A stretch of DNA of 64,000 bases from assembly GCA_038064455.1 (NCBI GenBank), contig JBBTTB010000006.1, positions 5,147 through 69,146 on the forward strand. Direction: 5' to 3'. A model generated the notes under the pieces. It was not told where the DNA came from and did not search any database. It saw only the letters and a list, made by a program, of their open reading frames with translations. Both the position numbers and the translations under genes were made by a program. Every line of letters starts with the position of its first letter. Position 1 is the first letter of the stretch. The DNA is from Patescibacteria group bacterium. Lineage in GTDB: Bacteria > Patescibacteriota > Minisyncoccia > 2-02-FULL-40-12 > GWA2-44-9. This document shows positions 6,725 to 64,000 of this stretch, piece by piece.

Positions 6725-8659
6725 TTACTGCACCTGCCAGACTTTTTGATCTTCAGTGAGGTAGAAGAGCGAGCCGTTTGGATGCACTGTCGCGGTGACC
6801 ACCTCGTGCTCTTCAGGGAAGGTGATCGTCTTAAAGAGCGAGCCACTCTTCTTATCTACGAGGTAGAGACGATTGAGCGTTGTATCAAGAATGTAGACAT
6901 ACGGGAGGTCTACGCCAGTAAAGAGTTGTGATGCAGGGGATACAGGAAGGCCAGTGCTTACTTCTCCCGTGCGCTCGCCCTTGTAATAGGTGAGGAGGGT
7001 GCCCGTTGTGGTGACTGCGTAGATGTTCCCATCAATGGCGATATCTACGACATCTGCAGGAAGTGAAGCACTACTCTTGAGCCATGCACTTGCGGTGCCT
7101 TTGCCCTGCGCTGCTCCTGAAACGCGCATAATGGTGCTATTTGCAACGCCGTAGAGATTGTCTCCAAATTGTTCAAGATGCGCGAGGGCGGTGGAAAGGG
7201 TGATAGGGGTGACGCTCTGGCCCTTCACCGATGCGGCGTTGGTACCAGCAATAACCGTGTGAAGGGAATCGCTTCCCGTAAGCGCGGTTGCCTGTGCGGG
7301 AACGGTAACCGAGTCAGCAATAGCGGAGGTGCTAATGGCGTTTAATGTGCCGACGGTTTCGGTGGTGCGATACACATACAAGCCGTTCTGTGCAGCGATG
7401 TAGCTGATCTTTGCTTCTTCTTTGCTGTTATCAAATGCGAGTTGCGGTTCAGCGAGTTTTGCCTGATCAAGAGCATCGAGCTCCGCAAAAAGTTCAGAGC
7501 GTATTTCTTGTGCTGCGGTTGATGCGCTGTCTCCAGAGATAAATGGGTTGAGCGCGGCAAGTGATGCGCCCAAGAGGGTTCGTGCTTCCGGAATCTCATT
7601 TTGGTTTACTTTAGTTTTAGCGATCTTCATTTGATCGCGGACATCGGAGATGACTGTTGCGAGGGCTTCTTCTTCTGCGGAGGGCGTCACGAGGGATCGC
7701 ACAAAGAGGGTGCCACCAACGAGTGCGGCGATCATGACGACGAGGCCAATAGCGCGCGAGCGTGGGTTGAGGTCAGTGAGGCCAAGACGGCGGAAGAATG
7801 CCATGACGGGGTTCTTTTTTCGCCCCAACGAGAATTCGGAAGGAATGATGCGAGGAATGGTTTCTTCGCTTCCGAGCGATGTTGGTTGCGCGATGGGGGG
7901 CGTGTCGTGTTGAGGCGCCTGCGCAAAGCGGACTTGCTGTTGTTGTGGCTCTGGTACAAATGACGGTGCCGGCGCGGTGATTTCTCGGATCTTCTGCACG
8001 GTGATGTAGAGTGCGGCGCAGGAGAACGTATCTTTCTGTTCGCGAATAGCGGCAAGCTTTGCGATGAAGGCGTCTTTGTCGAGTTTGTCGAAATCACTCT
8101 TCACAAAGCGCTCTCGTGTGGTGAGCGAGCGATTGGGGAAGAGCGCAAGGAGGCGATCGTGTTCCTGCACTTTGCCGGAGATGATATTTGAGAATTGGCT
8201 GCCAGTGGCATCGGCATCTTTTTCGAAATGCTCTACATTGTTAAGTACATCAACAATGCCGCCCGTGCGCGCGAGGAACAGTTTAAACTTTCCGAGTTTG
8301 GAAATGAGGAGCGAGCCGTCAGCGATGGTGAAGATGCCCATGTTAATCTTTGCACCATTGTTTTCAAACAATTCGGAAACAACTTCGTTTACTTTGCGAA
8401 GCGTGTTTGAGAATGCATCTTTAATAGCAATGCCAGGGCGCGCGTAGTATTCACGCTTTGCAAGCGCGGCAATGAGGTTGAGCGCGTAGGCGAGATCATC
8501 AGTGGGGTGGCTGATGTTGCCGACCACGAAGAGATTACCCAACATGCGGGTGCTGTCTTGCTCGTCGGAGCTGTATGAGAATGCGTCCGCGGGTCCTTCA
8601 GGGTTCGCGCCAGAGATAGAGATTTCGTGGGCAATCGGCTTTAAAGTGATTTTTTCCAT
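6725..8659 (-). CDS. Single-pass membrane protein with an N-terminal cytoplasmic PP2C/SpoIIE-like domain (possibly a degenerate phosphatase) and a large C-terminal extracytoplasmic domain.
   Basis: N-terminal region has the pattern ..GNLFVVGNISHPTDDLAYALNLIAA.. / ..GIFTIADGSLLISKLGKFKLFLARTGG.., reminiscent of SpoIIE-type PP2C motifs but with Asp positions replaced. TM segment LVVMIAALVGGTLFV. Beta-rich C-terminus. Confidence 0.45.
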   Translation of the reverse strand: MEKITLKPIAHEISISGANPEGPADAFSYSSDEQDSTRMLGNLFVVGNISHPTDDLAYALNLIAALAKREYYARPGIAIKDAFSNTLRKVNEVVSELFENNGAKINMGIFTIADGSLLISKLGKFKLFLARTGGIVDVLNNVEHFEKDADATGSQFSNIISGKVQEHDRLLALFPNRSLTTRERFVKSDFDKLDKDAFIAKLAAIREQKDTFSCAALYITVQKIREITAPAPSFVPEPQQQQVRFAQAPQHDTPPIAQPTSLGSEETIPRIIPSEFSLGRKKNPVMAFFRRLGLTDLNPRSRAIGLVVMIAALVGGTLFVRSLVTPSAEEEALATVISDVRDQMKIAKTKVNQNEIPEARTLLGASLAALNPFISGDSASTAAQEIRSELFAELDALDQAKLAEPQLAFDNSKEEAKISYIAAQNGLYVYRTTETVGTLNAISTSAIADSVTVPAQATALTGSDSLHTVIAGTNAASVKGQSVTPITLSTALAHLEQFGDNLYGVANSTIMRVSGAAQGKGTASAWLKSSASLPADVVDIAIDGNIYAVTTTGTLLTYYKGERTGEVSTGLPVSPASQLFTGVDLPYVYILDTTLNRLYLVDKKSGSLFKTITFPEEHEVVTATVHPNGSLFYLTEDQKVWQVQ

Positions 8660-8956: not shown

Positions 8957-9448
8957 ATGCCTCCAAAGAAACGAAATCGCACTGGGAAGCGGAAAAAGAA
9001 AGCACGCACGCCAAAACGTGTGGTGCGTCCGCGCGTGGTGATGCCCGGCCCAACCTATGTGGTGAATAAAGAATTCGCGTTCTTTAACGAACTGCATTCA
9101 CTTATTTTAAAACCATCTCCTGCAGAGCGCGGCGAGTTGATGCGCCGCATTGCGTCACTTGGTCGCGTGAAGCTCGCGGTTATCTCCGGAGTCTTTTTAA
9201 ATACACCAGATCAAACAGCGCTCATTGATACGAACGCACCAACCGACTTGTTTTTAGTAGCAGATGATTATAGTAAACAAAAACTCTCTGCATTTTTGAA
9301 AGCCCTTGAATCAGAAGTAGGCAAGGAAATAAAGTTTGGTATCATGGATAGGGAAGAGTTTATGTATCGTTTTGGCATGTTCGATCGCTTCGTGCGCGTG
9401 CTCCTTGAGGGGCCCCACGAGAAGTTGATTAACAAGCTTGGCATTTAG
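8957..9448 (+). CDS. Hypothetical protein with a strongly basic N-terminus (KKRNRTGKRKKKARTPKR) and a possible minimal nucleotidyltransferase-like core.
   Basis: ORF. Basic tail plus ..LAVISGVFLN..DLFLVADD.. (weak similarity to the NTase fold). Its stop overlaps the tRNA 5' end by 1 nt. Confidence 0.4.
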   Translation: MPPKKRNRTGKRKKKARTPKRVVRPRVVMPGPTYVVNKEFAFFNELHSLILKPSPAERGELMRRIASLGRVKLAVISGVFLNTPDQTALIDTNAPTDLFLVADDYSKQKLSAFLKALESEVGKEIKFGIMDREEFMYRFGMFDRFVRVLLEGPHEKLINKLGI

Positions 9449-9521
9449 GGCGCATAGCTCAGCTGGTTAGAGCGTTGCATTCACATTGCAAAGGTCCCTG
9501 GTTCGAGTCCAGGTGCGCCCA
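9448..9521 (+). tRNA. tRNA-Val (anticodon CAC).
   Basis: Folded by hand. Acceptor GGGCGCA/TGCGCCC. D-arm GCTCAGCTGGTTAGAGC. Anticodon stem TTGCA/TGCAA with loop TTCACAT. T-arm CCTGG-TTCGAGT-CCAGG. Discriminator A. No encoded CCA. Confidence 0.8.
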
Positions 9522-9962
9522 CTAAATAGGGCACGCGACAGCCGCTTCCGGTTGTTGCGTGCCCTGATTGCTGCATACGCGCCTGGCTCGAACGCCGGAG
9601 CGATGTGTTGCCAGCTGGCAACACCGCGAGGCGGTGGTCAGTTTACCCGCCCGCCAGTTAGGTGGGCGGGCCCGAGCCCCGACGACTGGTCGGGGCGAGA
9701 GGCGAGACCGAGTCCAGGTGCGCCCACTAAATAGGGCACGCGACAGCCGCTTCCGGTTGTTGCGTGCCCTGATTGCTGCATACGCGCCTGGCTCGAACGC
9801 CGGAGCGATGTGTTGCCAGCTGGCAACACCGCGAGGCGGTGGTCAGTTTACCCGCCCGCCAGTTAGGTGGGCGGGCCCGAGCCCCGACGACTGGTCGGGG
9901 CGAGAGGCGAGACCGAGTCCAGGTGCGCCCACTAAATAGGGCACGCGACAGCCGCTTCCGGT
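9504..9962 (+). repeat. Tandem direct repeat with a 205-bp period, 2.2 copies. Each unit begins with the last 18 nt of tRNA-Val (cgagtccaggtgcgccca).
   Basis: Copy 1 at 9504-9708 (shares the tRNA 3' end), copy 2 at 9709-9913, copy 3 partial at 9914 to about 9962. Copies 1 and 2 are essentially identical. Units are rich in hairpins. Confidence 0.85.
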
Positions 9963-9984
9963 TGCTGCATGCTCCGATTATTGT

Positions 9985-10102: not shown

Positions 10103-10864
10103 GTGGTACGACGATACCGCATAGGTGTTACGATGCCTCTCAAGCAAGAGATGCTGGAAGCTGCTCCCAGGGCCGCCTCGTGGCTCGCGGAGCGATGCCT
10201 CAACACGCTGTCTCCGACAGACCGAAGGGCGGTTTTCGATGACGTGGTGCAAGAGGCGATGAACCGTAGCGATGGCGACTCCGCGTCGGCCCTCTTAGAG
10301 CTCGAGCTTCGTTACTTGGATTCTGGCGCGCTCGATCGGGTACCCACGCCAGAGACCGTGGAGGAGCAGTGTTGGGTGCGCTACCTTCTCATCGAGCATC
10401 GCTTCTTGCGCGTGGTGGAGGCTAGGTGCCTGCGTCCCAGCAGTATGGAGCCATTTGCCAACTACAAGCTGTTCGTCTGCAAAGAGGTGGCAGAGTGCTG
10501 GACGCCGACGCTTCATGGGCCCCGTGAGTTGCGGGCTTTCCGCCTTTTGGCGGCAATGGGGTGGTGTGACTCGCCAGAATATCTCGAAGCTTTTTGGGAG
10601 CGCGTTGGCGCATCTATGCCACCGTGGGCGCGCGCGATGTACGCGACTACGAGGGCGGAACAGAATAAGTTCATCGCGATCCTCCGTGAGCGCCTGGATC
10701 GGTTTCCGCGAACCGAGCCGCAGGATCCCGAGGCCGCTTTCTTGTACTGGCTTTCCTTGCCACGTGTACCTGCCGACTTGAGACGCTTGCTCGCCATGGC
10801 GTATGCGAGGATAGTCGGCCCCGACGCGATCATGCGCGGTATGATGCAGCAGCCGCGTAGCTAA
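10103..10864 (+). CDS. Hypothetical protein, island paralog A (GC-rich).
   Basis: 253-aa ORF, with an alternative start at 10133. No known motif. Homologous to the next gene (..RAFRLLAAMGW.. / ..FLYWLSLPRVPADLRRLLAMA..). Confidence 0.5.
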   Translation: MVRRYRIGVTMPLKQEMLEAAPRAASWLAERCLNTLSPTDRRAVFDDVVQEAMNRSDGDSASALLELELRYLDSGALDRVPTPETVEEQCWVRYLLIEHRFLRVVEARCLRPSSMEPFANYKLFVCKEVAECWTPTLHGPRELRAFRLLAAMGWCDSPEYLEAFWERVGASMPPWARAMYATTRAEQNKFIAILRERLDRFPRTEPQDPEAAFLYWLSLPRVPADLRRLLAMAYARIVGPDAIMRGMMQQPRS

Positions 10865-11052: not shown

Positions 11053-12261
11053 GTGCGACACGACGTTGTCGCGTGGAGCACCACTATGGCGCTCAAGATC
11101 GAATTCTGGACATCGGCGGAGGAAATTCTCCGAATGTTGCCGTCAGTATCCGCAGCCATGGCCATGAAGTGGCTTGCGGCGCCCTCGGAAGATCAGGAAT
11201 CCTTCTTGGACGAAATCGTGATGACGGCCGCTCGGCGCTATGACGACGAGCAGACGTTTGCGCTCACCAACCTCATGTGTGCAGTGATCACTGAGCGGGA
11301 AGTTGCTGTCGCCAGAGACGGGACGGGCAACCGCTTCGAGAAGGAAAACGCTGCAAAGGCCGTCGCCGTTGAAAAGGCGCTGAAGTATCTCGACGATCTC
11401 TTCTGGCGCCTACCAGACTCTCGTGTTCAGCTCGACTATGAAACGCGCAAACCATACAACACGGCAGCGCTCACGGGAACGAAAGCGTTCATCTTCAAGC
11501 GTCTTCTGACGCAGTGGAAGTTGGCGGTGCCATCCGAGGTAAGCATCCGTGCGTTTCGTCGCGCGATCGCCATGGGGTGGCCACTCCCCGCGGAGACGAA
11601 GACCCTGCCTGGCGAAAGCGACATCGAACTGAAGGTTCGTGGGCGTTGGGTATCGGCAGATGAGCGCAAGCAGTATCTGACCACCCTACGCGAATGTCTG
11701 GGGGGTTTGACGTCGGATGACCCGGATAGCCTGTTCTCCCACTGGTTCTCACTCCAGGCGGTTCCCTCTGACATCCGGGACCTGCTTGCCATCGCGCGGA
11801 CGAGGCTGGGTGGCCACCACCTGGCATCGCGTGACGTGGTGCGTGCGGGGATGCTCAACGGCTTGCCGCAGTCGGGGGTAGAGGTGGTCGCCGCCTTGGC
11901 TGTTCGTATGCGCCTGGCCGTGGAGGGGTTGACGCGTGTCAAGGAGCTCATCGCCAAGAGTATCCCAGCACCCCACATCCACCAGAGCTACTTCCAACGA
12001 GAGAGAATCATCGCAGAAGGAGTCGAGCGTGCGGTTAAGTACGCTTTCAATTTCTCTCCCGAAACCGTGACGCTGCAAATGACTGTCATGGTGCCGGACG
12101 AGATGTACGGTTCCAACATGTACTACCCCACCGTCGACGCCATCGAGAAGGTACAGTGTAAGGGCAATCTCCTCGACATCGCAATCATGCTGCGCTTTTA
12201 CGATCCGAACGCTCGCGATCGTATCGTGAAGGAGTGCAGCATCGAGGCGGCCCCGCGCTAG
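11053..12261 (+). CDS. Hypothetical protein, island paralog B (GC-rich).
   Basis: 402-aa ORF, with an alternative start at 11086. The central and C-terminal region is homologous to paralog A (..RAFRRAIAMGW.., ..FSHWFSLQAVPSDIRDLLAIA..). Weak hairpin terminator at about 12262-12305. Confidence 0.5.
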   Translation: MRHDVVAWSTTMALKIEFWTSAEEILRMLPSVSAAMAMKWLAAPSEDQESFLDEIVMTAARRYDDEQTFALTNLMCAVITEREVAVARDGTGNRFEKENAAKAVAVEKALKYLDDLFWRLPDSRVQLDYETRKPYNTAALTGTKAFIFKRLLTQWKLAVPSEVSIRAFRRAIAMGWPLPAETKTLPGESDIELKVRGRWVSADERKQYLTTLRECLGGLTSDDPDSLFSHWFSLQAVPSDIRDLLAIARTRLGGHHLASRDVVRAGMLNGLPQSGVEVVAALAVRMRLAVEGLTRVKELIAKSIPAPHIHQSYFQRERIIAEGVERAVKYAFNFSPETVTLQMTVMVPDEMYGSNMYYPTVDAIEKVQCKGNLLDIAIMLRFYDPNARDRIVKECSIEAAPR

Positions 12262-28863: not shown

Positions 28864-29643
28864 ATGGAAACTGTGGATACACAAAAAGAATGGGGCCTCC
28901 TCGTGCTGACGTTTTTTGTTGCGGGGGCGCTCTGGGGCACGGCGCGTATGTGGTTGGGGCCTACCGTACAAACGCTCTCTGACCCCTTCTTGTGGGGGCC
29001 GGTGCTTATGGTGGGAGTTGTACTCGCGGCGGTTATGAGCGTGAGCTACCTACTTGTTGAAAGTAAGTGGTGGCGGTTTGGTATTTCATGCGCGGCACTT
29101 GCACCGCTTGTTCTCGTGTTACCAGTAAGTGGAGCGTATGTAGCTGCGCTCTGTGCGTCATTGCTCATTATGAGTCTTGGGGCCCGTGATATTTCCATAC
29201 ACGCTGACCACGGGCGTGGTACAGGAAAGATTGTTACGGCGCTCTTTATCGCCGCATCACTTGCATACCTTATGGCTCCTGCGGTGCAAGATCGTGCGAA
29301 CACGGGGATTGTACCCGATAGCGCCATCGGCATGATACAAAAAACTGTTGGAGCTATTGTCGGCTCGGAACTCGATAGGCTCCCATTCTTTCAACGCAAA
29401 GCAGTAGAGGAGCAAATCGCAGAACAAACTATAGCGACGATCAATACACTCTCTGCGCCATTTGCAAAGTATATTCCCGCGGTACTCACTCTTACGCTGT
29501 TCGCAGTGCTTATCAGCGTAAAGCCCATCTTCTCATGGCTTGCAAGAATCACTGGCCTGTTTATTATCTGGCTTATGCAAAAAATGCACATTGTTGAAGT
29601 GCATACAGAGACGATAGAACGGCAGAGATATGCTTTGCGCTAA
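28864..29643 (+). CDS. Hypothetical polytopic membrane protein.
   Basis: Several hydrophobic helices. No recognisable family. Confidence 0.35.
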   Translation: METVDTQKEWGLLVLTFFVAGALWGTARMWLGPTVQTLSDPFLWGPVLMVGVVLAAVMSVSYLLVESKWWRFGISCAALAPLVLVLPVSGAYVAALCASLLIMSLGARDISIHADHGRGTGKIVTALFIAASLAYLMAPAVQDRANTGIVPDSAIGMIQKTVGAIVGSELDRLPFFQRKAVEEQIAEQTIATINTLSAPFAKYIPAVLTLTLFAVLISVKPIFSWLARITGLFIIWLMQKMHIVEVHTETIERQRYALR

Positions 29644-38933: not shown

Positions 38934-40187
38934 ATGAGAACAGGAACTATTCTTATTCTTGGCGGTGGCTTTGCAGGAGTACGTACAGCACTCGATCTTG
39001 AAAAGACGCTCGGTGCGCGAGCGAATATTATCTTAGTAGATAAGAACCCATACCACCTCTTCTTGCCAGCACTCTATGAGGTTGCTGCAGCGTATGGTGC
39101 ACCACATGATCCATACACCATTATGTTGCGCCGTACTGTCGCCATCCCATTTAAGGATATCTTCGAAGGTAAGCGCATCACTCACATGCAGGCATCTGTG
39201 CTTGATGGAGATCTCGAACGGCGGATCATCCGCACGGACACAGGAATAGAAATTCCATATGACTTTCTTGTAGTTGGCTTGGGGAGTGAGGCTTCCGATT
39301 TTGGCATTTCTGGCGTCACCGATTATGTATACGGCTTTAAAACCCTTGATGACGCGATTGCCATTAATACTCGCCTCACCGATCTATTCCAAGAGGCAGA
39401 GCGGGGTGAGCGACGACTCCCCATTCGCGTTCTTGTGTGTGGTGCAGGTTTTACTGGTATTGAAACAGCTACAGAAATTGGCTCATGTGTGAAAAAATTT
39501 GCACGTGAGTGTAAGCTCCGTGGCCAGCCGACACACATCACGCTCTTTGATGCGAACTCCGATCTGTTGCCCAACGTTTCCGATGGTGAGCGTGAACGTA
39601 TAAAAACGCGCCTAACCGCTCGTGGTGTAGCGCTTGTATCTGGTGCCCGCGTTTCTTCAATCGAGTCTTCTTGTATTCATCTCGCTGATGGCCGCAGCTT
39701 TGATGGAGATATCATTATCTGGACCGCGGGCGTCCGTGCCCCGGGCGTCCTAGAGCGGATACACGGCCTTGATCTCACGCCTCAAGGTAAAATGGTCGTT
39801 GATGAGCAATTGAATATGCGACGGTATCCGAATGTATTTGGTGTTGGTGACGCAATTCATTTTATGGATCACGCGACTCAAAAACCAATTCCTGCTATGG
39901 CATACCTTGCTATGGATCATGGGAAGATCGCCGCACAAAATATTTTAAGAGTGATTGAAGGTAAAGAACTTCGCACACACAAACCCTCGTACGGTGTGTG
40001 GGTTGCTCCTGTTGGAGGCAAGTATGCTGTTGCACGTCTTCCCGGAGGCATCGTCTTTGGGGGTTTCGCCGCATGGCTCTTTCGAGAGTTCATCGATCTC
40101 CATTATTTCATTTCCATCTTACCGTTTAAAAAAGCCCTCTCACTTTTTTGGAGAGAGATAAAAGTTTTTACTGCGAACGATTTGTAG
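38934..40187 (+). CDS. ndh: Type II NADH dehydrogenase (NDH-2)/FAD-dependent pyridine nucleotide-disulfide oxidoreductase.
   Basis: Two Rossmann GxGxxG motifs (ILGGGFAG, VCGAGFTG). NDH-2-like spacing. C-terminal amphipathic tail. Confidence 0.7.
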   Translation: MRTGTILILGGGFAGVRTALDLEKTLGARANIILVDKNPYHLFLPALYEVAAAYGAPHDPYTIMLRRTVAIPFKDIFEGKRITHMQASVLDGDLERRIIRTDTGIEIPYDFLVVGLGSEASDFGISGVTDYVYGFKTLDDAIAINTRLTDLFQEAERGERRLPIRVLVCGAGFTGIETATEIGSCVKKFARECKLRGQPTHITLFDANSDLLPNVSDGERERIKTRLTARGVALVSGARVSSIESSCIHLADGRSFDGDIIIWTAGVRAPGVLERIHGLDLTPQGKMVVDEQLNMRRYPNVFGVGDAIHFMDHATQKPIPAMAYLAMDHGKIAAQNILRVIEGKELRTHKPSYGVWVAPVGGKYAVARLPGGIVFGGFAAWLFREFIDLHYFISILPFKKALSLFWREIKVFTANDL

Positions 40188-40465
40188 CGACCCATAGATC
40201 GCGCAGGGGAGAGGAGTGTCTTTTTTATGGAGGTGTCCCCCGGCATATGGCAGGGAAGTGGTTATGCGGAGGAGAGGGATAGAAGGAAGTGGCGCACTTA
40301 AAAAATGTTTCATGCGCACGCGGCGACATGATCAACGCACCGCAGATTAAGAAAGAGGACATTGTGCGGGATTATTAAAAGTTCTTATTTCAAAGGCTTT
40401 TCAGAAGACCCTACGTCGCATAACCTATATTGTGCGACAGTCTCTCCTATGCGCGATATGGCGGT

Positions 40466-40500
40466 TTATATAAAAATCAAAGCGGCCCGGGTGTGGGCCG
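40466..40500 (-). terminator. Rho-independent terminator for the minus-strand gene 40544-40900.
   Basis: On the minus strand, GCGGCCC-acaccc-GGGCCGC followed by TTTGATTTTTAT. Confidence 0.7.
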
Positions 40501-40543
40501 CTCTCCTGTTTTTGATCTCTGCCTCCTCTTGTAAGGATGCCTC

Positions 40544-40900
40544 TTATCTCCTTTCAGCCCCTTGGCACTCTTTGGCTCCGACCCTGACCTTTAGGCACCC
40601 CGCACCCTTATCCAGGTCATACGGGTGCATGTGGATCAAGAACTTGCCTCCAGGAGCCTCCAGACGTGTCACCGTGGGTGCGTTGACCTTCGTAGCGCCG
40701 TCTGCAACGACGCACACGCGGTCAACGGGAATCGTTCCGAACGCTTCAGCGCCTTGTGGGTTCAGCTCGATATACATCACGCCGAGCAACTCGTGTACGT
40801 CGGCGAACCTGCCGCACGTTGCGCGTTCATGTACTGGCAACAGTGTTTTCGTTTCGCCAACGAGAAACACCTGCGCAGCCATCAAAAACAGAAATTTCAT
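40544..40900 (-). CDS. Small secreted hypothetical protein (118 aa) with a signal peptide.
   Basis: GGAGG RBS. MKFLFLMAAQVFLVGET signal. Own terminator. Preferred over the overlapping plus-strand ORF 40362-40937. Confidence 0.45.
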   Translation of the reverse strand: MKFLFLMAAQVFLVGETKTLLPVHERATCGRFADVHELLGVMYIELNPQGAEAFGTIPVDRVCVVADGATKVNAPTVTRLEAPGGKFLIHMHPYDLDKGAGCLKVRVGAKECQGAERR

Positions 40901-40976
40901 CTCCGCCTCCAAAACATATTATACAATAATAATGTAAATAATCAAATATACGCCACGGTATGCTCTTGATACACTA

Positions 40977-41663
40977 ATGTCCATGTCCCGCCTCATATTT
41001 GATATCGAAACCGTTGGAGCCGATTTTGAGAGCTTTGATGCCACAACGCAGGAGTACCTCCTCTCCAGTGCGAAAACGCCCGAAGAGCAAGATTTAGTAC
41101 GTGATCGCATGGGGTTCTCTCCACTTACAGGAGAAATCGTGGCTATTTCCATTTTAAACCCCGACACCCACAAAGGAGCTACGTTTTTTCAGGCACCCGA
41201 GAGTAACCTTGAGCCGTATACAAAAGATGACGTGCAATATGTCCCCAGCACCGAAAAAGAGATCCTCCAACGCTTTTGGGACGCCGCGCGCTACTACGAT
41301 CAGTTCATCACCTTCAACGGACGCGCATTTGATGCACCGTTTGTGATTGTGCGCTCTGCGGTGCACAGCGTGCATCCTACGCGTGATCTAATGCCTAATC
41401 GGTACAGCGGTGAAGGTCACGTAGACCTTTTTGACCGCCTCTCGTTCTTTGGTGCGGTGCGGAAGACCATGAGCCTCCACATGTGGTGCCAAGCGTTTGG
41501 TATCGCAAGCTCGAAAGCTGATGGAGTCACGGGTGATGATGTGGCTCGCCTGTTCATGGAAAAGAAGTATACCGATATCGCTGAATACTGTTTCCGTGAT
41601 GTGGTTGCTACCGCGGAGTTATTTAAGATCTGGGAGACGTATATGCAACCTCCCCGAAGATAA
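40977..41663 (+). CDS. DnaQ-like (DEDDh) 3'-5' exonuclease of the PolB-exonuclease-related family.
   Basis: Exo I motif LIFDIETVGA. RNase H-like fold pattern with later Asp/His motifs (..FNGRAFDAPF.., ..HVDLFD..). Confidence 0.6.
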   Translation: MSMSRLIFDIETVGADFESFDATTQEYLLSSAKTPEEQDLVRDRMGFSPLTGEIVAISILNPDTHKGATFFQAPESNLEPYTKDDVQYVPSTEKEILQRFWDAARYYDQFITFNGRAFDAPFVIVRSAVHSVHPTRDLMPNRYSGEGHVDLFDRLSFFGAVRKTMSLHMWCQAFGIASSKADGVTGDDVARLFMEKKYTDIAEYCFRDVVATAELFKIWETYMQPPRR

Positions 41664-42406
41664 TGAACGAATATTCAAGCGTCGCAGACTTTCGTGCAAA
41701 AGCGGGCTACGAACATGGCGGCATGTGGTATCCCCGTGTTACCTCTATTCTTTCTATTAAGGCAAAGCCTGCGCTGTATGCGTTCTATGGTCGCATGCCA
41801 AGCTTTGCGGCCGGCAAAGCAATGACCGAGCGCTCAGCACAAGAAGGCACTGCGGTGCACGAAGCAGTAGAGAACATCCTTCGAGGCAAAGTAGAGGAGC
41901 CATCCCCCGCCGTATTACCAAGTGTGCGCGCCTTTCAAGCATTTCTCATGGCGCATGATGTAAAACCGTTAAGTATAGAAGAGCCGGTTATAAATGATGA
42001 GCACCACTACATTGGCACCCTTGATGTGCTCGCCGAGATCGATGGCCGCGTGGGTGTGCTAGACATTAAAACTTCAAAAGGCATTTACCGTGAATATGGT
42101 ATGCAAACGGCGGCCTATATTGGTGCCCTTCAAGAACGTGGCACACTCCCCGACCTCACGAGTTGGGTCATTCGCCTGGATCAACACAAGGAATGCGAAA
42201 CATGTGGTGCGCGCATGCGTTCAAAAGGTGGTATGCCTACGGTGCGTGGCGGTGTTTATACGTGCAGACACACATGGTCACCCGAACATGGCGAATATGA
42301 ATTTAGTGAACTCCTCGACACCCAGCACAACTTTGAAGCATTCCTTGCCGCAAAGAAGCTCTGGGAATGGGAGCACGTAGCGTTTCTGAAAGAAATTGCC
42401 AAATAA
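41663..42406 (+). CDS. PD-(D/E)xK nuclease of the RecB/Cas4-like family with a C-terminal Cys cluster.
   Basis: Motifs E (HEAVE), D (IGTLDVLAE), D-x-K (GVLDIKTSK) and QxxxY (QTAAYIGAL). Followed by C-x2-C...C-x-H (CETCGAR...CRH). Start overlaps the exonuclease stop (ATGA). Confidence 0.6.
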   Translation: MNEYSSVADFRAKAGYEHGGMWYPRVTSILSIKAKPALYAFYGRMPSFAAGKAMTERSAQEGTAVHEAVENILRGKVEEPSPAVLPSVRAFQAFLMAHDVKPLSIEEPVINDEHHYIGTLDVLAEIDGRVGVLDIKTSKGIYREYGMQTAAYIGALQERGTLPDLTSWVIRLDQHKECETCGARMRSKGGMPTVRGGVYTCRHTWSPEHGEYEFSELLDTQHNFEAFLAAKKLWEWEHVAFLKEIAK

Positions 42407-42448
42407 AGAGAGCGATGGTACGATTTTCCCTTCGAAGGAGGCGGTGAG

Positions 42449-42658
42449 ATGATTACGCTCGACATTGAAGTTGACCTGACAGCAGAGGGCCTGTGCGCAC
42501 TTGATGAGATGGGCGAACATTGGGGACGCTCCAAAAGCGAGCTCGCCATCCTCGGCTGGACGCTCTTGATGCAGGCGCGTCTCTGCCATACGGAGGGAAC
42601 GCCTATCGAATGCACGCTCCCCGACGGCACAGTCGTGAGGATCTCTGCCCTGAAGTAG
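42449..42658 (+). CDS. Ribbon-helix-helix (CopG/Arc-like) DNA-binding protein.
   Basis: GAAGGAGG RBS. ..LDEMGEHWGRSKSELAILGW.. matches the RHH signature (LDELAxxxGRSRSELI). Confidence 0.5.
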   Translation: MITLDIEVDLTAEGLCALDEMGEHWGRSKSELAILGWTLLMQARLCHTEGTPIECTLPDGTVVRISALK

Positions 42659-42662
42659 GCAT

Positions 42663-42696
42663 GCCCCCCGCACCATTGCGGGGGTTCGTTTTTATC
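42663..42696 (+). terminator. Rho-independent terminator.
   Basis: CCCCCGC-accatt-GCGGGGG followed by TTCGTTTTT. Confidence 0.8.
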
Positions 42697-43120
42697 TGCA
42701 ATTATCCGCCAGAGAGTATCCTGCCGCTTGGGCGGCGAGTTCATTATCGAACCAGAGTTTGTTTTCTTCTTTAATACGCGAAACACCAGAGCACCAGCTG
42801 TAGTGGTACTTCTTACTGGAAGAGCTTTTTGAAACCACCACGCGGGCATCTCGAGGCGCTTGCGGTGCCGGGGTTTTGCCGCCCCCTATCCCCGCCTGGC
42901 TCGCAAGCTGTGCTGTGAATATCTGCGCGCCGTCTTCTATGGTAATGGGTGCTACGGTGCCGCTTTCCTGTGACTTGAGGCCTAATTGGTAGCTGATAAA
43001 GGCAATGGCGACCATGCACAGCACGACAAAGATCTCGTGGAATGAGCGCTTGACGAATGTAGCTGTTTTTGCTAGGATTTCTCTCACGTTTATTAGTTTA
43101 CACGATCCGCTATGGCACAT
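42692..43120 (-). CDS. Hypothetical membrane-anchored protein with a conserved-looking C-terminal Cys-containing domain.
   Basis: TM helix FVVLCMVAIAFISY. C-terminus KYHYSWCSGVSRIKEENKLWFDNELAAQAAGYSLADNC, vaguely like the Ada N-terminal metal-binding layout. Start is uncertain: 43120 overlaps the divergent rpmA, and the alternative is 43015. Confidence 0.3.
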   Translation of the reverse strand: MCHSGSCKLINVREILAKTATFVKRSFHEIFVVLCMVAIAFISYQLGLKSQESGTVAPITIEDGAQIFTAQLASQAGIGGGKTPAPQAPRDARVVVSKSSSSKKYHYSWCSGVSRIKEENKLWFDNELAAQAAGYSLADNCR

Positions 43121-53632: not shown

Positions 53633-54442
53633 ATGGAAAAGCGAAAGCGCCGTATATTACTCGCTATAACCGTCCTTGTTTTTATTACAGGGACGTATTG
53701 GGCTATCATGGATGCCCAAGGATACACCTACAGCTTCTCGCAGGGGCGCTTTATTCGTACGGGAACCATTGTGCTCCGTCTTAACGAAACGGCAGATGTG
53801 CTCTTAAATGGAGAACGGAAAGGAAGCACGTCATTCCTCTCTCGCTCATTTGGTATAGAAGAATTACTTCCCGGCTCTTACACGGTAAGCACCTATCGTG
53901 ACGGCCTCTCTTCATGGAGTAAAGTTGCCTCTGTCTCCGAAGGCCTCATTACAGAATTTCCACACGTGCTCATGCTCCCTACAGATGAAGCGCGCATCGA
54001 ACTTCTTCGCTCACGCCTTGAATTAGATATGGCGGAACCGGCGCTCTTGCCCCTTCCCTCTCCTCATCCTCGTCAAACTCCTGTAGTGAGTCCCGTCCCA
54101 GATTCAACGCTCGCGTGGCGTAGCGATACGCTCATGCTTATTCAGAAAGATGGCACGCGCACTGATATCGTGAAGAACCCCACAGGCGCACGCCTTTCAG
54201 CGCGCCAAGATCGCTTGCTATGGTGGAGTGGCCGCGATCTCTGGGTGATGTGGCTTACACCGAACGGCACACAGCCTTTCTATCCTCAAGGGTACATAGA
54301 ACGTATTTTCCGTGCTTCACGTCCCATTACCAATGCAATGTGGTTTGATGAAAACGCTACGCACATCGCTTTTAACGAGGGCGCAGGTATTCGCATCATC
54401 GAAATCGATACTCGCGGTGGAGTAAACATCATTCGCTTATAA
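53633..54442 (+). CDS. Hypothetical membrane-anchored protein with a PEGA-like beta domain.
   Basis: N-terminal TM segment ILLAITVLVFITGTYWAI. GSYTVSTYRDG segment. Confidence 0.35.
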   Translation: MEKRKRRILLAITVLVFITGTYWAIMDAQGYTYSFSQGRFIRTGTIVLRLNETADVLLNGERKGSTSFLSRSFGIEELLPGSYTVSTYRDGLSSWSKVASVSEGLITEFPHVLMLPTDEARIELLRSRLELDMAEPALLPLPSPHPRQTPVVSPVPDSTLAWRSDTLMLIQKDGTRTDIVKNPTGARLSARQDRLLWWSGRDLWVMWLTPNGTQPFYPQGYIERIFRASRPITNAMWFDENATHIAFNEGAGIRIIEIDTRGGVNIIRL

Positions 54443-58963: not shown

Positions 58964-61051
58964 CTATTCATTTGCGGGGCTCGGTTGAGGAGTTGCGTAG
59001 ATCAGTTCGACTGAAATGTTGTTCGTGTCGTCCGGAGCCTTCGTCGCCCAGCGAGGCGAGAGCGTCACGCGGGCAGAGCTAATCTGTGCCTCCTGCGATC
59101 TGATAAAGCTTTCCAGTTGTCCTCGTGTTTTACCTCGTACACCGTCACGAATAGCATCTGCGGAAACTGCAGCAAATGCGGTTCCCCCAACTTGTACCGT
59201 ACCTCGCAGTGTTCCTGCCTTTTCATCAAATATAGGACTTGTTACAGAATACGTTAGATATTCAGGCAAGATAGAAACGGGATGTCGCTTCTCAAGGGAT
59301 TCTTTAATAAATGCGTGCATGTCTTCTTCACGAAAACCAACAGTGGTGATTGTTTGCTTCGCACTCGCCGTGAAGGTATCTACGGGTTCGTCTTGCTGTG
59401 CTGATGTAGTGATCTGTACTTCTGAAACTTTACTTGCACCGTCTACAATGACGGCACGCGTGCGTGCGTCGGTAAGTGCATCGGCGATAAGCTGTTTGAG
59501 GTCATTTTCAACTGCAGCACGAGCTTTTACGATATCAGCTTCGGTAACCACCTTCGCTTTACCTTGAATGCCTCCTGCCATCGGAGCAGATGACGTTGCT
59601 GTAAACTTCGCATACCGTTCAGCGTCATTACGTTCTTTAAATGCTGAAAATACAAAAGACGTTGGAGCTATATTGTAGGTAGCGCCAGGCTTATCGGCGA
59701 TGACCTCTACAGTAGCTTTTCCGGGTTCAGAACCACGTATGCCGGGCACGGTAATAGTGCGAAGGGTGCGGAACATGAGGCCTTCTTTTGTTTCAAGACG
59801 CGTCGTTGCGATAAACGTCTGTGGCGTTGCGCTAAACGCGTTCATAATAGTGACGGTGCCACGAGCCTTTTGAGCGACGTCGCGCTCACCGGTTGCGGCA
59901 AAGGTTTGTGATGCCGTTTTTTCAATGGTAATAAACTGCCCTGGCATAACCCCCGTAGCTATGTTCGCCTCTTTTACGTTGCGATCAGCGAGTACAGGCA
60001 AGCTTGCCTCAAGTTTTGATGGGGCCGGAAAAATAGCAAGGTGCGCTGACTGCGGCGTAAATAGATAAATAGCAAGCGCTGATATTGCTAAAACAGTAAG
60101 ACCAATGCCAATCTTTCCAATGGTAGAAATACCTTCGCCACGAGGTGTCACCACGCGTGGTTGCGTAGATCCCTTACGGAAAAGGCGCGAGAACCAAGAT
60201 CCACGCTTTGCTGAAGAAGCCACCGGAGGACCCCAGATACCACCCTCCTTGCTTGGCTCACCCCATACTGTAGCGAGGTCTTCAACGCGAGTCTCTCTCT
60301 GCAGCGGCACCGTGGAGCGCTTTCCCTGTGTGCCGCGTACTGGCACGGCTCGTCCACGACCGATCGCCGAAGGGACGGCACTATCAAGGCGTCGGCCAGA
60401 AGCGGCAAGCGTTGCGTGCGGCATGCTACCAGAAACAGCAACTTCTTCCGCCTCTAAATCCTCTAATTCTTCCGGAGATGGCTCAAGATCGTCTTCAAGA
60501 ACATCTTTATCTACGTCATCAGTATCTACATCATCTCCCTCTTCGACTTTTGTACCGTCGGCGTCAAGTTCTTCTTCATGAAAACCTTCGTCGTCCTTCT
60601 GACGCTTCGTGCCCGGCTCTTGATCATCATAAAAACCATCTCCGTCCTTATCAATTCCTCGATACGGCGCATGGTCGGGGATTTCACTGTCATCTTCATC
60701 TGGCTCACCCATAACTTCATCCGATGGAAGCACGACATCATTTCTTCCGGATACCGCCAACTGCGCTGCTGGCTTCTTCCGGGCGCCGCCTTTTGGTGTA
60801 TTGAGCACTACTTCAAACGCATGATCACGAGCAAGCGCCGCAACATCCGAGTTGGGCGTCATAAAGGTGATGCGCTTTTCATTTGCGAGCGCCTCACTGG
60901 CAAGTGTTGCAAAGTCTTCTATTTGAGAAAACGCCTTGGAGCGTTTTGGGAGAATAAAAACAACCTCCGAGGCGGGCGTCCCTTGCACAATGCCAAGAAG
61001 CTCGTCGAAGGTATCGTCCTTGAGGACGTGTATGATTTTAGTACCTGCCAT
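58964..61051 (-). CDS. Large hypothetical bitopic membrane protein with a cytoplasmic N-domain, a long acidic disordered linker, a TM helix and a roughly 350-aa extracytoplasmic domain.
   Basis: TM segment IGKIGIGLTVLAISALAIYLF. Asp/Glu-rich linker. No motif recognised. Start is placed at Met61 (MAGTK..) because the upstream 180 nt carries an independent plus-strand promoter and small ORF. Confidence 0.4.
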   Translation of the reverse strand: MAGTKIIHVLKDDTFDELLGIVQGTPASEVVFILPKRSKAFSQIEDFATLASEALANEKRITFMTPNSDVAALARDHAFEVVLNTPKGGARKKPAAQLAVSGRNDVVLPSDEVMGEPDEDDSEIPDHAPYRGIDKDGDGFYDDQEPGTKRQKDDEGFHEEELDADGTKVEEGDDVDTDDVDKDVLEDDLEPSPEELEDLEAEEVAVSGSMPHATLAASGRRLDSAVPSAIGRGRAVPVRGTQGKRSTVPLQRETRVEDLATVWGEPSKEGGIWGPPVASSAKRGSWFSRLFRKGSTQPRVVTPRGEGISTIGKIGIGLTVLAISALAIYLFTPQSAHLAIFPAPSKLEASLPVLADRNVKEANIATGVMPGQFITIEKTASQTFAATGERDVAQKARGTVTIMNAFSATPQTFIATTRLETKEGLMFRTLRTITVPGIRGSEPGKATVEVIADKPGATYNIAPTSFVFSAFKERNDAERYAKFTATSSAPMAGGIQGKAKVVTEADIVKARAAVENDLKQLIADALTDARTRAVIVDGASKVSEVQITTSAQQDEPVDTFTASAKQTITTVGFREEDMHAFIKESLEKRHPVSILPEYLTYSVTSPIFDEKAGTLRGTVQVGGTAFAAVSADAIRDGVRGKTRGQLESFIRSQEAQISSARVTLSPRWATKAPDDTNNISVELIYATPQPSPANE

Positions 61052-61155
61052 CGCATAAAAGTATAGCACAGAGCCCCTAGAATACGTGTGGAATAGTGGG
61101 TAAAGTGGGCCTTGCTTTTTATTCCGTCCTGTGCTATAATGAGCTCTGGTGATTT

Positions 61156-61167
61156 TGTGGTATAATC
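61156..61167 (+). promoter_or_regulatory. Extended -10 promoter (TGGTATAAT).
   Basis: ttgtggtataat at about 61156-61167. A second TATAAT sits at about 61136. TSS is predicted about 7 nt downstream. Confidence 0.5.
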
Positions 61168-61184
61168 CGCTTGGAGGCCAGCCA

Positions 61185-61286
61185 ATGCTCTTTCTCGCCT
61201 GCTCGTTCGCCGCCCTGTGCGGCATTCTCAAGATCTTGGACCGGATGTACCCGGTGCAGGATCAGCCCACCCCCGACAAGAAGTAG
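61185..61286 (+). CDS. Candidate small hydrophobic protein (33 aa).
   Basis: GGAGG RBS 8 nt upstream of ATG. MLFLACSFAALCGILKILDRMYP... Followed by the hairpin CCCCCGAC-aagaagta-GTCGGGGG plus a T6 tract (about 61270-61305). Confidence 0.3.
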   Translation: MLFLACSFAALCGILKILDRMYPVQDQPTPDKK

Positions 61287-61303: not shown

Positions 61304-64000
61304 TTATACGCCAAAGCGCATCGTGCAGTAGGTGCACTCACGGTCGTCACATTTTTTATCCCAGAAAGAAAGTGCCAGCACTTCAGAAATCACTTTTTTA
61401 ATAGCTTCTTTGGTTTCGGCAACGGGGAGTTCATTAAGAGTGAAAGATTCTCCGCGGTATTTTTCACGTGTGTCTGGCTGTATGTATTCAATTTGACCCG
61501 ATGTCATCTGTAGTGCGCCACCCTGGTAGCCTTGAAGGAGAATGGAATAAAATGCGAGCTGACGCGCCTCATCACCCGTCGCGTCTTTTGTTTTCCCTAA
61601 CAGCGCGTTGCGCGTTTTAAACGCTCCTGTTTTGTAATCTAAAACGTGCGCTTCTGTTGGTGACAGCTTTTCAAGTTTGTCGAGTGCGCCGTGAAGCACA
61701 ATGCCTTCATGCGCCGGTACATCTGAAATACGCAATTCATACAGCGCATCGCGGCGCCACAGTGATGCGCGCTCTGTAAGATATCCATCAACCATTTCTA
61801 ATCCACGTTCTTCAAGGCGCTTGCGGTCACGCATTGTAAGGGGTTCGTGCTCGAGTGCTTTTATAAATGTGGCCCGTGCGATAGTAGGCACATGCTCCCC
61901 TGTGTGTGTAAACGCTTCTCCGTATGCGCGCAGTGCCGCATGAATCGCAGTACCAAGCTGTGCGTGTGCATGAGGTGCCTCTGGCATGCGCACTAAGTTC
62001 CTGAAGAAAAACTTCCACGGACACGAGAGGTAGTTGTTCAACGCCGTCACTGAAAGCCCTGATGTGAGAAAAAGATCTTTCACGTACGCGTGCACGTCTG
62101 CCGGTGGTTGTGGTACTGCCGCCTGCGTAGCGTAGGTCGTAAGATATGCCGCTTCAAATGCGTCTACCGGGAATGTCTCTAGGTGAGCTGGATGTAATTC
62201 TGTGATAAACCGAGAAGGCAGTCGTTCCCTATCTTCGAGATCGCGTACCGAGTAGGTAATATAGGCGACATCTTGTGCGCGCGTGAGCGCTACATAAAAT
62301 ACATTGCGTTCGTCGCTTTCAGGGTCTTGAGATACTGCGTCGGTAATGCGATACACCTTTTCGGGAAGCGTGAGGAGCTCGCGGCGCTGCTTGCCTCCCC
62401 ACGTGCCATCAACGGCGTGGGCTATGATAACCACCTTAAACTCGAGCCCTTTTGCACGATGTGCGGTCATAACACGTACATACCCCACGGGGAGCGCGTG
62501 GACAGGGAGTGCGAGCGCGCCGTGATCATGTGCGCGAACAAGCGCATGCCATACTGCATCGAGAGGAATATCCGGAGAACGCGCCACGACACCGCGCACC
62601 GCAGCGTAGAGCGTGCGGAGTGCACGCATGTCGGTCATATCCTCGGGAGAATCAAAGAGATCAATAAGAGGAATGAGAAGATCGAGGAGCGCAAGTGGGC
62701 CGTGCTGTCTGCCATGCTCGTGTGCTTTTATGATGTGTGCGGCAAGTTCTAGAAAAAGCTTTGGGTGCACAATGCCCACATCACGAAGCGCTGATTCAGA
62801 ACGGATAAGATTCCACGCATCTTGTCCGGAGCGGAGCGAGCGTAGGAAGCGGAACACATCGATAACATCGCACTTCCCCGCGCCAGCTTGAAGCGCTTCT
62901 GCAAGTGCATACTGATCGCCCGCGTTACAGGCGGTACGAAAGAGCAGTAGGAGTGACCGCATGCGAGGATGACGAAACAGTGATTGGTTCGCCGTGTGGG
63001 CGGCACGAATGCCCGCGCGGCCAAGTGCGCGCACAATGGGTTCTGCGTGCGCGTTGTCTCGAACCAGTATCGCGATCTCTTCGGAAGCGACTCCATCGGC
63101 AATATGTGATTGCACAATGCGCGCAATACCAAAAAGCTCTACATCGGTGTGAGAAAAAACCCCAAGACGTACTGGAATACCCGCAAGCGCTCGGTGCGCA
63201 TGGAGAGGCTCACTCTGTGGCGCAAGGCCATGAGCCGCATCGAGTACGTGTTGCGTTGAGCGATAGTTGGTATCGAGTGTCACCACACGCATTTTTTTAA
63301 ATGCTCGCTGAAGCGCGTGAAAGTTTTCATGCGACGCTCCCTGAAAACGGTAGATGGCCTGCTTCGTGTCGCCAACAACAAAAATATTCGGACTCGCGTC
63401 GTCGTGAATAATTGCATCTACTAGCCCATGCTGTGCGGCGTTTGTATCCTGGTGCTCATCAATGAGAATGTGTTGGTAGCGCTCGCGCACATCAGCGGCG
63501 ATTTCACTGTCGTGCATCATCGCATCGCGCGCGCGAATAATCATATCGTCAAAGTCATACCAGCGGCGTGCGGCACACGCATCCATATATGCTCCATAGA
63601 GCTTTACGAGCTCCGCGCGTCGCGCGTACATGCGATCTGATGTTTCTTTTTCATCATCTCCGGGAACATCCTCTCGAACAATCTGCGTAAACACTTCTGG
63701 TGATACGCCCTCGCGCTTTAATTCACTGATAGCACGGACACAATGCTGGATATAATATTCAGGATCACCACTCGGACGGAGCGCTTCATATTCTCCGGTT
63801 TGTAAAAGTTCGGAAAGGAGATCAACGCCTTCCACATCGGTCATTGCGCGGCCACCAATCACATCAGGGAATGCATCTGCATGCGCTTGAATAATATTGT
63901 GGGCAAAGCCATGAAACGTCGTGATGGAAACGCGATATGCATCTGGCCCAATGAGATCCGCAAGGCGTTTGCGCATCGCAAGAGCGCCAGATTCTGTGAA
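61304..64000 (-). CDS. UvrD/AddA-like superfamily 1 DNA helicase fused to a C-terminal RecB-family nuclease domain. N-terminus lies beyond the window edge.
   Basis: Helicase motifs (TFHGFAHNII, VLIDEHQDTN, ..TNYRST.., VMTAHRAKGLEF). C-terminus has ..HVLDYKTGAF.. (a RecB nuclease DYK motif) and a terminal Cys cluster CDDRECTYC. Confidence 0.8.
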   Translation of the reverse strand, partial: FTESGALAMRKRLADLIGPDAYRVSITTFHGFAHNIIQAHADAFPDVIGGRAMTDVEGVDLLSELLQTGEYEALRPSGDPEYYIQHCVRAISELKREGVSPEVFTQIVREDVPGDDEKETSDRMYARRAELVKLYGAYMDACAARRWYDFDDMIIRARDAMMHDSEIAADVRERYQHILIDEHQDTNAAQHGLVDAIIHDDASPNIFVVGDTKQAIYRFQGASHENFHALQRAFKKMRVVTLDTNYRSTQHVLDAAHGLAPQSEPLHAHRALAGIPVRLGVFSHTDVELFGIARIVQSHIADGVASEEIAILVRDNAHAEPIVRALGRAGIRAAHTANQSLFRHPRMRSLLLLFRTACNAGDQYALAEALQAGAGKCDVIDVFRFLRSLRSGQDAWNLIRSESALRDVGIVHPKLFLELAAHIIKAHEHGRQHGPLALLDLLIPLIDLFDSPEDMTDMRALRTLYAAVRGVVARSPDIPLDAVWHALVRAHDHGALALPVHALPVGYVRVMTAHRAKGLEFKVVIIAHAVDGTWGGKQRRELLTLPEKVYRITDAVSQDPESDERNVFYVALTRAQDVAYITYSVRDLEDRERLPSRFITELHPAHLETFPVDAFEAAYLTTYATQAAVPQPPADVHAYVKDLFLTSGLSVTALNNYLSCPWKFFFRNLVRMPEAPHAHAQLGTAIHAALRAYGEAFTHTGEHVPTIARATFIKALEHEPLTMRDRKRLEERGLEMVDGYLTERASLWRRDALYELRISDVPAHEGIVLHGALDKLEKLSPTEAHVLDYKTGAFKTRNALLGKTKDATGDEARQLAFYSILLQGYQGGALQMTSGQIEYIQPDTREKYRGESFTLNELPVAETKEAIKKVISEVLALSFWDKKCDDRECTYCTMRFGV

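Follow-up and report, generated by a model that had tools for sequence, protein, structure and literature searches.

A window of 64,000 nucleotides (nt) on contig JBBTTB010000006.1 (assembly GCA_038064455.1), from a groundwater Patescibacteria bacterium of the Paceibacteria type with a tiny genome, carries two adjacent nuclease genes that are conserved, non-mobile chromosomal housekeeping genes of this lineage. The window is the whole stretch of DNA that was analysed, and all coordinates refer to it unless another locus is named. Gene 1, here called exo (40977-41663, + strand, 228 amino acids (aa)), encodes what is, judged by family match and motifs, a stand-alone PolB-type DEDDy exonuclease of the Pfam family PF10108. 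Gene 2, here called pdd (41663-42406, + strand, 247 aa), encodes a PD-(D/E)xK nuclease that falls, within the RecB superfamily, on the branch of MGME1 and the phage exonucleases. Each protein retains an intact, metal-dependent nuclease active site, and strong purifying selection acts on both sites. A third open reading frame, ORF3 (42449-42658, + strand, 69 aa), is an unrelated, strain-specific occupant of a variable spot and is not part of the pair. All three open reading frames (ORFs) lie where a first-pass annotation of the letters had put them, all on the + strand; its description of them as a compact three-gene cluster fails, as ORF3 is absent from every relative. As the evidence stands, the locus is an ordinary conserved housekeeping pair with one orphan ORF. 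It seems somewhat probable that the two exonucleases trim or clear single-stranded DNA (ssDNA) ends of both polarities in replication or repair, a role whose substrate, polarity and cooperation between the two enzymes we infer by analogy.

Family and active sites of the two nucleases

The product of exo matches the Pfam profile DNA_pol_B_exo2 (PF10108) with 74.3 bits against a cut-off of 24 (E = 1.5e-20), and it also matches RNase_H_2 and, less strongly, the PolB exonuclease domain. Its match to phrog_403, a "DNA polymerase exonuclease subunit", has E = 1.4e-11, and its sequence matches in the PDB are the exonuclease domains of archaeal PolB and of Pol epsilon. The motif LIFDIETVGA, which the first-pass annotation had listed for a PolB-exonuclease-like protein, is present within RLIFDIETVGA, and with the PF10108 match above cut-off that class is right. 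When 18 homologs belonging to several phyla were aligned (mean column identity 63%), the motifs Exo I (D9-x-E11), Exo II (N114-x4-D119) and Exo III (Y204-x3-D208) proved invariant. The label DEDDh had been attached to this protein; the test for H-x4-D failed, an invariant H148-x-D150 is present elsewhere but not as H-x4-D, and Exo III reads Y204-x3-D208, so that the subtype is DEDDy. This is also the class to which the PF10108 family has been assigned (PMC4611032), and PF10108/COG3298 has been placed next to the PolB exonuclease cluster (PMC3985635).

PF10108 is a widespread and essentially uncharacterised bacterial family, for which one experimental study was found: the Campylobacter jejuni member Cj1132c (WlaX) binds DNA, on which it was captured, and influences the rate of spontaneous mutation (PMC4611032). 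Like Cj1132c and the rest of the family, exo is stand-alone, about 225 aa long and free of a polymerase domain, with DEDDy motifs. There is no structural difference, and the novelty lies only in the frequent pairing with an MGME1-like nuclease in Patescibacteria. The predicted activity, from family and motifs, is that of a 3'-5' exonuclease on DNA. A 226-aa NCBI protein is 100% identical to exo; there are two in-frame ATG codons, at 40977 and 40983, and the NCBI model takes the second. A recognisable Shine-Dalgarno sequence was not found before exo (40913-40983), and its mRNA may be leaderless or free of a Shine-Dalgarno sequence. Public labels of the protein are inconsistent, and include "ribonuclease H-like domain-containing protein", "DNA polymerase elongation subunit (family B)" and "3'-5' exonuclease". 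It should be annotated neither as a DNA polymerase subunit nor as a "ribonuclease H-like domain protein".

The match of pdd to PDDEXK_1 (PF12705), at 19.4 bits, is just under the cut-off of 22, and many of its close homologs carry a precomputed match to that profile. The match to phrog_298 ("exonuclease") has E = 7e-31, and the best sequence match in the PDB is human MGME1 (E = 1e-3). An AlphaFold2 (AF2) model built on 21 homologs has a mean confidence (pLDDT) of 91.9. When this model was compared with the PDB by Foldseek, the top nine matches were all MGME1 (E = 7e-9 to 3e-7, TM score 0.50-0.70), followed by Cas4, ACE1, RecE, Dna2, AddAB and lambda exonuclease only at E>=3e-3. Predicted phage PD-(D/E)xK exonucleases in BFVD are equally close in fold.

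The residues E61, H66, E70, D121, D134-I-K136 and Q148-x3-Y152 are invariant in the 21 homologs, and the full RecB-family motif set (E / D / DIK / QxxxY) that had been read from the single sequence is thereby present without exception. The metal ligands and catalytic residues of MGME1 are His180, Asp238, Asp251, Lys253, Gln271 and Tyr275 (PMC6237815, PMC3597694). They align, in this order, to H66, D121, D134, K136, Q148 and Y152 of pdd, all six of which are invariant. The catalytic residues thus align properly, and together with the MGME1 fold they bear out the earlier placement of pdd among the RecB/Cas4-superfamily nucleases.

The extra cysteine cluster noted in the first pass (C-x2-C...C-x-H) is also real. 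It forms a CCCH insert in the C-terminal half of the protein (codons 42194-42271, + strand), in which C178-x2-C181 and C201-x-H203 are all invariant in the 21 homologs and the AF2 model predicts beta-hairpins. We presume that this family-specific insert is a zinc ribbon, the CCCH arrangement being typical of such ribbons and suggesting zinc binding. Two long N-terminal helices of the model, 26-43 and 48-73, sit at the position of the MGME1 arch, and in this predicted structure they may form a helical arch. A search of 1.84 billion representative sequences returned a compact full-length pdd family and then a halo of 13,265 matches at E<=1e-3. The listed members of the halo, phage exonucleases included, cover only the nuclease core (about profile positions 12-176), without the CCCH insert and the C-terminal helices. 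The pdd family is an unannotated Patescibacteria subfamily of a known superfamily, with a distinctive CCCH insert.

MGME1 (Ddk1/C20orf72) is the best solved match and shares with pdd the active-site set His, Asp, Asp-x-Lys and Gln-x3-Tyr. It has been grouped with phage exonucleases, and true MGME1/Ddk1 orthologs have been reported only in Opisthokonta (PMC3597694). The pdd protein also matches the phage exonucleases grouped with MGME1, and phage and archaeal relatives occur in PDDEXK_1. It differs from MGME1 in its low sequence identity (about 21%), in the CCCH insert, in a C-terminal helix pair and in being a bacterial chromosomal core gene. With about 21% identity, and with the best 80 pdd genomes all from Patescibacteria, pdd does not belong to the MGME1 orthologous group proper.

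Cas4 (DUF83, TIGR00372) belongs to the same superfamily, and pdd has weak matches to its profiles over the catalytic core. The fold match of Cas4, however, is orders of magnitude weaker than that of MGME1, and pdd lies outside any CRISPR/cas context. We reject a Cas4 identity: pdd scores 25.6 bits against a threshold of 65 for TIGR00372, and 12.7 against 22.7 bits (E = 0.14) for PF01930. The iron-sulfur cluster of Cas4 is held by four Cys residues, one N-terminal and three in a C-terminal C-x2-C-x5-C motif. In pdd there is no invariant N-terminal Cys, and the only invariant Cys and His residues of such a cluster are C178, C181, C201 and H203 in the C-terminal insert. The gene should therefore not be named Cas4.

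AddAB and RecBCD have RecB-type nuclease chemistry in common with pdd, which differs in having no helicase domain. The idea that the exo-pdd pair stands in for a missing AddAB or RecBCD is weakened by a UvrD-type helicase fused to PDDEXK_1 in the same window (61304-63976, - strand). The exonucleases of lambda Exo and RecE modules are likewise of the PD-(D/E)xK type and distantly similar in fold. Those modules pair the exonuclease with an annealase, whereas pdd has no adjoining annealing protein, is partnered by a 3'-5' exonuclease, and is chromosomal and syntenic.

Conservation, synteny and pairing

The stop codon of exo (TAA, 41661-41663) and the start codon of pdd (ATG, 41663-41665) form a TAATG junction (41661-41665, + strand) with an overlap of 1 nt, and not the 4-nt ATGA overlap first described. 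Reading of the sequence revealed no Shine-Dalgarno sequence ahead of the pdd start. Because of this overlap and the missing Shine-Dalgarno sequence, the two genes are probably translationally coupled. Near-zero stop/start junctions (about -7 to +4 nt, by an approximate measure) recur at many related loci. The earlier proposal of coupling is plausible. A bidirectional terminator (40479-40504) lies between the upstream NDH-2 gene and exo/pdd, followed by a small divergent gene (40544-40912, - strand, about 118-122 aa). Since both separate the pair from NDH-2, exo and pdd are predicted to form their own transcription unit, and on this gene layout they are co-transcribed here. The product of the divergent gene looks secreted, and it was detected only in the closest relative, locus L010 (labels of this form denote related loci).

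Relatives of pdd occur in at least 540 species-representative genomes. Taxonomy and loci were kept for the best 80 of these, all of which are Patescibacteria (Paceibacterota, Yanofskybacteria, Jorgensenbacteria, Brennerbacteria, Buchananbacteria and Parcubacteria). Some records are labelled "uncultured Saccharibacteria", yet their gene order is identical. The neighbourhood reads PriA(-), gltX, M23 peptidase, NDH-2, [exo], pdd, a small membrane protein(-), L27, L9(-), S41 peptidase(-) and glycosyltransferases. Both exo and pdd are single copy within the window. Across the lineage pdd is thus largely a syntenic, single-copy core gene with no mobility signal. The first-pass annotation had called such a pair unusual in a minimal housekeeping context; the pair is itself conserved housekeeping.

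Median identities to the window proteins are 59% for L27, 57% for exo, 50% for pdd, 47% for GluRS, 45% for NDH-2, 44% for the M23 peptidase and 40% for L9, in loci picked by their similarity to pdd, a choice that inflates the pdd figures. By this measure both exo and pdd evolve more slowly than their neighbours GluRS and L9. The distribution of exo is much broader than that of pdd, and its homologs from Nitrospirota, Thermodesulfovibrionia and Omnitrophota have 56-58% identity to it. In loci L090-L095, its similarity between Patescibacteria and Nitrospirota or Omnitrophota (56-58%) equals that within Patescibacteria, which could stem from extreme constraint or from horizontal transfer.

Pairing was recounted with profiles in the 70 related loci that have enough flanking DNA. 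In 34 of these exo adjoins pdd, in the order exo>pdd (29 loci) or pdd>exo (4), or convergently (1). Whether the pair is conserved as a unit or patchily distributed had been left for checking: the adjacency is recurrent and occurs in three arrangements, but the pair is not an obligate unit. Adjacency in several arrangements argues for, and suggests, a functional link between the two genes. As a separate observation, a gene for a XerC/D-type tyrosine recombinase lies within about 600 bp upstream of pdd in seven of the 80 loci (L019, L031, L032, L042, L043, L046 and L085), and in L019 it directly adjoins pdd.

Signs of phage origin or of defence were sought in several ways. When both family alignments were used to scan 2.9 million viral contigs, all relatives that turned up were distant, with at most 29% and 34% identity, and exo and pdd were never paired on these contigs; phage tblastn matches of pdd have 25-33% identity. 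The GC content of the cluster (0.50-0.53) matches that of the rest of the window, and its codon scores are gene-like. With viral relatives at 25-34% identity and unpaired, and with native GC content and codons, we reject the idea that the two genes came from a phage or another mobile element. PADLOC gave only weak single-domain matches (Cas4 2.5e-6, DEDDh 1e-3, DruK 4e-3), and no partner components lie nearby, so a defence system is rejected as well.

The window holds no CRISPR array, no integrase, annealase or cas gene lies near the pair, and no cas genes were seen in related loci. The search for defence or phage genes nearby, which had been proposed as a check, thus turned up no CRISPR array, single-strand annealing protein or phage gene among the scanned window ORFs. 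Those with a Pfam match are all housekeeping or cell-envelope genes, namely L10, MraW, a penicillin-binding protein (PBP), a Mur ligase, RecR, DnaB, CysRS and DnaK/J, and further HrcA, EF-P, Fmt, PriA, MreB and RpoA. The exo-pdd pair should accordingly not be taken as a marker of defence or of a prophage.

Possible roles of the pair

If the two enzymes do process ssDNA ends in replication or repair, pdd would thread free ends under a two-helix arch, like MGME1, and degrade them mainly from the 5' end. Such threading and a 5' preference have been described for MGME1 (PMC6237815; bioRxiv 10.1101/2024.01.15.575787). The exo enzyme would remove 3' ends, and the two would jointly trim flaps or overhangs to ligatable ends, or clear linear DNA or ssDNA, during replication and repair. 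The division of labour would be that of mitochondria, in which MGME1 and the 3'-5' exonuclease of POLG jointly make ligatable ends and degrade linear mitochondrial DNA (PMC5928156, PMC11002302, PMC4557304).

Several results weigh against this role. The identity between pdd and MGME1 is only about 21%, with TM scores of 0.5-0.7, and phage exonucleases are equally close, so that polarity and substrate are not transferred to pdd with confidence. No exo gene lies within about 4 kb of pdd in 36 of the 70 loci. Conversely, no pdd-like gene lies near exo in the three non-Patescibacteria contexts examined (Nitrospirota, Omnitrophota and another non-Patescibacteria-like contig), so that either enzyme can act by itself. 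The slow evolution of pdd is also read from figures that the choice of loci inflates.

A stronger form of the proposal can be put forward only tentatively: exo and pdd may constitute a dedicated two-enzyme, two-polarity system of Patescibacteria that processes or clears single-stranded or linear DNA and is essential, in these minimal genomes, for finishing replication with ligatable ends or for disposing of DNA that is broken or imported. Such a system would, just as tentatively, be the bacterial counterpart of the mitochondrial partnership of MGME1 and the POLG exonuclease.

It is unlikely that the two genes share nothing except inherited gene order, with unrelated roles for an exo found in many phyla and a pdd specific to Patescibacteria. 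The occurrence of exo alone in other phyla would fit this, as would the loci in which pdd holds its place with no exo nearby. The rigid synteny of the whole neighbourhood also means that adjacency says little, and in L094 exo lies in a row of ftsE, ftsX, M23 peptidase, CtpB, exo and GT2 that resembles the M23 / exo / CtpB / GT2 neighbours in the window. Against unrelated roles, the adjacency recurs in three arrangements, including pdd>exo and convergent, 1-nt or near-zero junctions are kept at many loci, and the polarities expected of the two enzyme classes are complementary.

Patescibacteria are widely considered to rely on salvage, and the pair might degrade imported environmental or host DNA to nucleotides in a cell without de novo synthesis. 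We regard this as improbable. Two ssDNA exonucleases of opposite polarity would suit incoming single strands, but the conserved neighbourhood has no competence, nucleotidase or nucleoside-kinase gene, and free-living phyla with full biosynthesis conserve exo just as strongly. A literature search on Patescibacteria nucleases (salvage, DNA uptake, RecJ, RecBCD) found nothing relevant.

Still less credence is due to RNA as the substrate of one or both enzymes, in 3'-end maturation or turnover like that by RNase T, RNase D or Orn. The conservation of exo across phyla, with its mean column identity of 63%, is typical of RNA-processing and translation-linked proteins, and the neighbours include gltX, L27 and L9. 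Yet PolB proofreading domains in particular account for the motifs and the best matches of exo, it was on DNA that Cj1132c was captured (PMC4611032), and human Ddk1/MGME1, the closest solved relative of pdd, has no detectable ribonuclease activity (PMC3597694).

The mobile phage-recombination or anti-phage module under a ribbon-helix-helix (RHH) regulator that the first-pass annotation had proposed is largely refuted and now scarcely tenable: the nearest relatives of pdd outside its own family are indeed phage exonucleases (by phrog_298, tblastn and BFVD folds), exo matches phage "DNA polymerase exonuclease subunit" profiles, PADLOC has its weak Cas4 and DEDDh matches, and the spot 3' of pdd is variable, with a defence-like island in one relative, but the single-copy synteny of pdd in at least 540 species genomes, the native GC content and codons, the missing close or paired viral homologs, the surroundings free of any annealase, integrase, CRISPR array or cas gene, and the absence of ORF3 from every relative all speak against it.

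Were the role in processing ssDNA ends to prove true, it would give a function to two strongly conserved "hypothetical" proteins of Patescibacteria, a large and mostly uncultured group whose minimal genomes make every retained gene informative. It would also provide a bacterial, free-standing model of the partnership between mitochondrial MGME1 and a 3'-5' exonuclease. The present analysis is chiefly of use for annotation, and as the source of a testable hypothesis on two highly conserved genes of minimal genomes.

ORF3, the variable spot and the wider window

ORF3 lies in a variable cassette of 295 bp (42398-42692) between pdd and a convergent conserved gene, and this cassette carries ORF3 together with its signals. 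These are a promoter-like site (42396-42424), a Shine-Dalgarno sequence, GAAGGAGG (42434-42441), 7 nt ahead of the ATG, and an intrinsic terminator (42665-42694, + strand) that closes the + strand transcription unit. In this terminator a hairpin (42665-42684), whose 8-bp stem includes 7 GC pairs and whose loop is 4 nt long, is followed by the T-run TTCGTTTTTA. The strong ribosome-binding site and the terminator of its own that had been ascribed to ORF3 are thus both confirmed. Its in-frame codon score is 0.17, compared with 0.29 +/- 0.12 for window genes and -0.49 +/- 0.19 off frame, and on these sequence signals ORF3 is probably a real gene.

A search of 5.8 billion proteins returned a single match to ORF3, the record of this same protein in a Patescibacteria metagenome-assembled genome. 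ORF3 has no match in Pfam, NCBIfam, PHROG or PADLOC and no PDB sequence match at E<=10, and no RHH family of Pfam came up even at E<=10, with the full length or with the N-terminal 48 aa. A single-sequence AF2 model (pLDDT 72) predicts strands at 3-8, 53-56 and 62-67 and helices at 12-24 and 29-45, and packs the N-terminal strand of the monomer against the C-terminal hairpin. Foldseek found nothing significant for this model, the best match (E = 0.16) not being an RHH protein. The sequence "GRSKSE" at the start of helix 2 resembles RHH proteins, a pattern that is unspecific to RHH. Of the earlier RHH call, the predicted beta-alpha-alpha pattern fits, but no RHH profile or structure matches, and an RHH-like N-terminus is possible in this model. 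ORF3 is missing from all relatives, including L010, whose pdd is 98% identical; being absent from every relative, it cannot be the regulator of the pair.

The space downstream of pdd is a variable spot, with different content even in the nearest relatives. Between the window and L010 the flanks are 82.4% and 80.9% identical at the nt level, and the 295 bp of the cassette are unalignable (L010 4736-4991). L001 has an unrelated 187-aa gene at the same spot (L001 6745-7422), and L004-L006, from a Curtissbacteria relative, hold an island there with TnsA-like, ResIII helicase, NYN, WYL and N6_N4-methyltransferase genes (L004 6736-12735). Direct repeats flanking the ORF3 cassette were sought as a signature of insertion, and only chance-level matches of 14-19 nt were found. 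The convergent conserved gene (42692-43120, - strand) encodes a small protein of 142 aa, which lies beside pdd in most related loci with a median identity of 40%. As read from its sequence, this protein includes a hydrophobic segment and, towards the C-terminus, a motif that contains Cys. Neither its sequence nor that of the small divergent gene (40544-40912, - strand) has a Pfam match.

Further along the window, sizeable ORFs of up to 644 aa have no Pfam match at E<=1e-4 (8-928, 6725-8659(-), 10103-10864, 11053-12261, 28864-29643 and 53633-54442), which is typical of the dark matter of Patescibacteria. The ORF at 61304-63976(-), at least 890 aa long, has the AddA/RecB architecture, in which a UvrD/PcrA-type helicase is followed by a PDDEXK_1 nuclease at the C-terminus. 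Its N-terminal end is probably missing, as the helicase match starts at profile position 61. Next to it lies an ORF of 755 aa (58964-61231(-)) without a Pfam or NCBIfam match, which may be a divergent AddB-like partner.

A 205-bp tandem repeat (9504-9979; 2.3 copies, 98% identity) starts within the 3' end of a tRNA-Val gene (9448-9522), and might have arisen by partial duplication of the tRNA or as a scar of integration. The GC skew of the window is +0.075 over 1-40 kb, with minus-strand genes included, and about -0.01 over 43-64 kb, with a break at 40000-43000; gene orientation converges at about 42.4-42.7 kb. This skew break could mark a replication terminus or some other boundary of strand bias.

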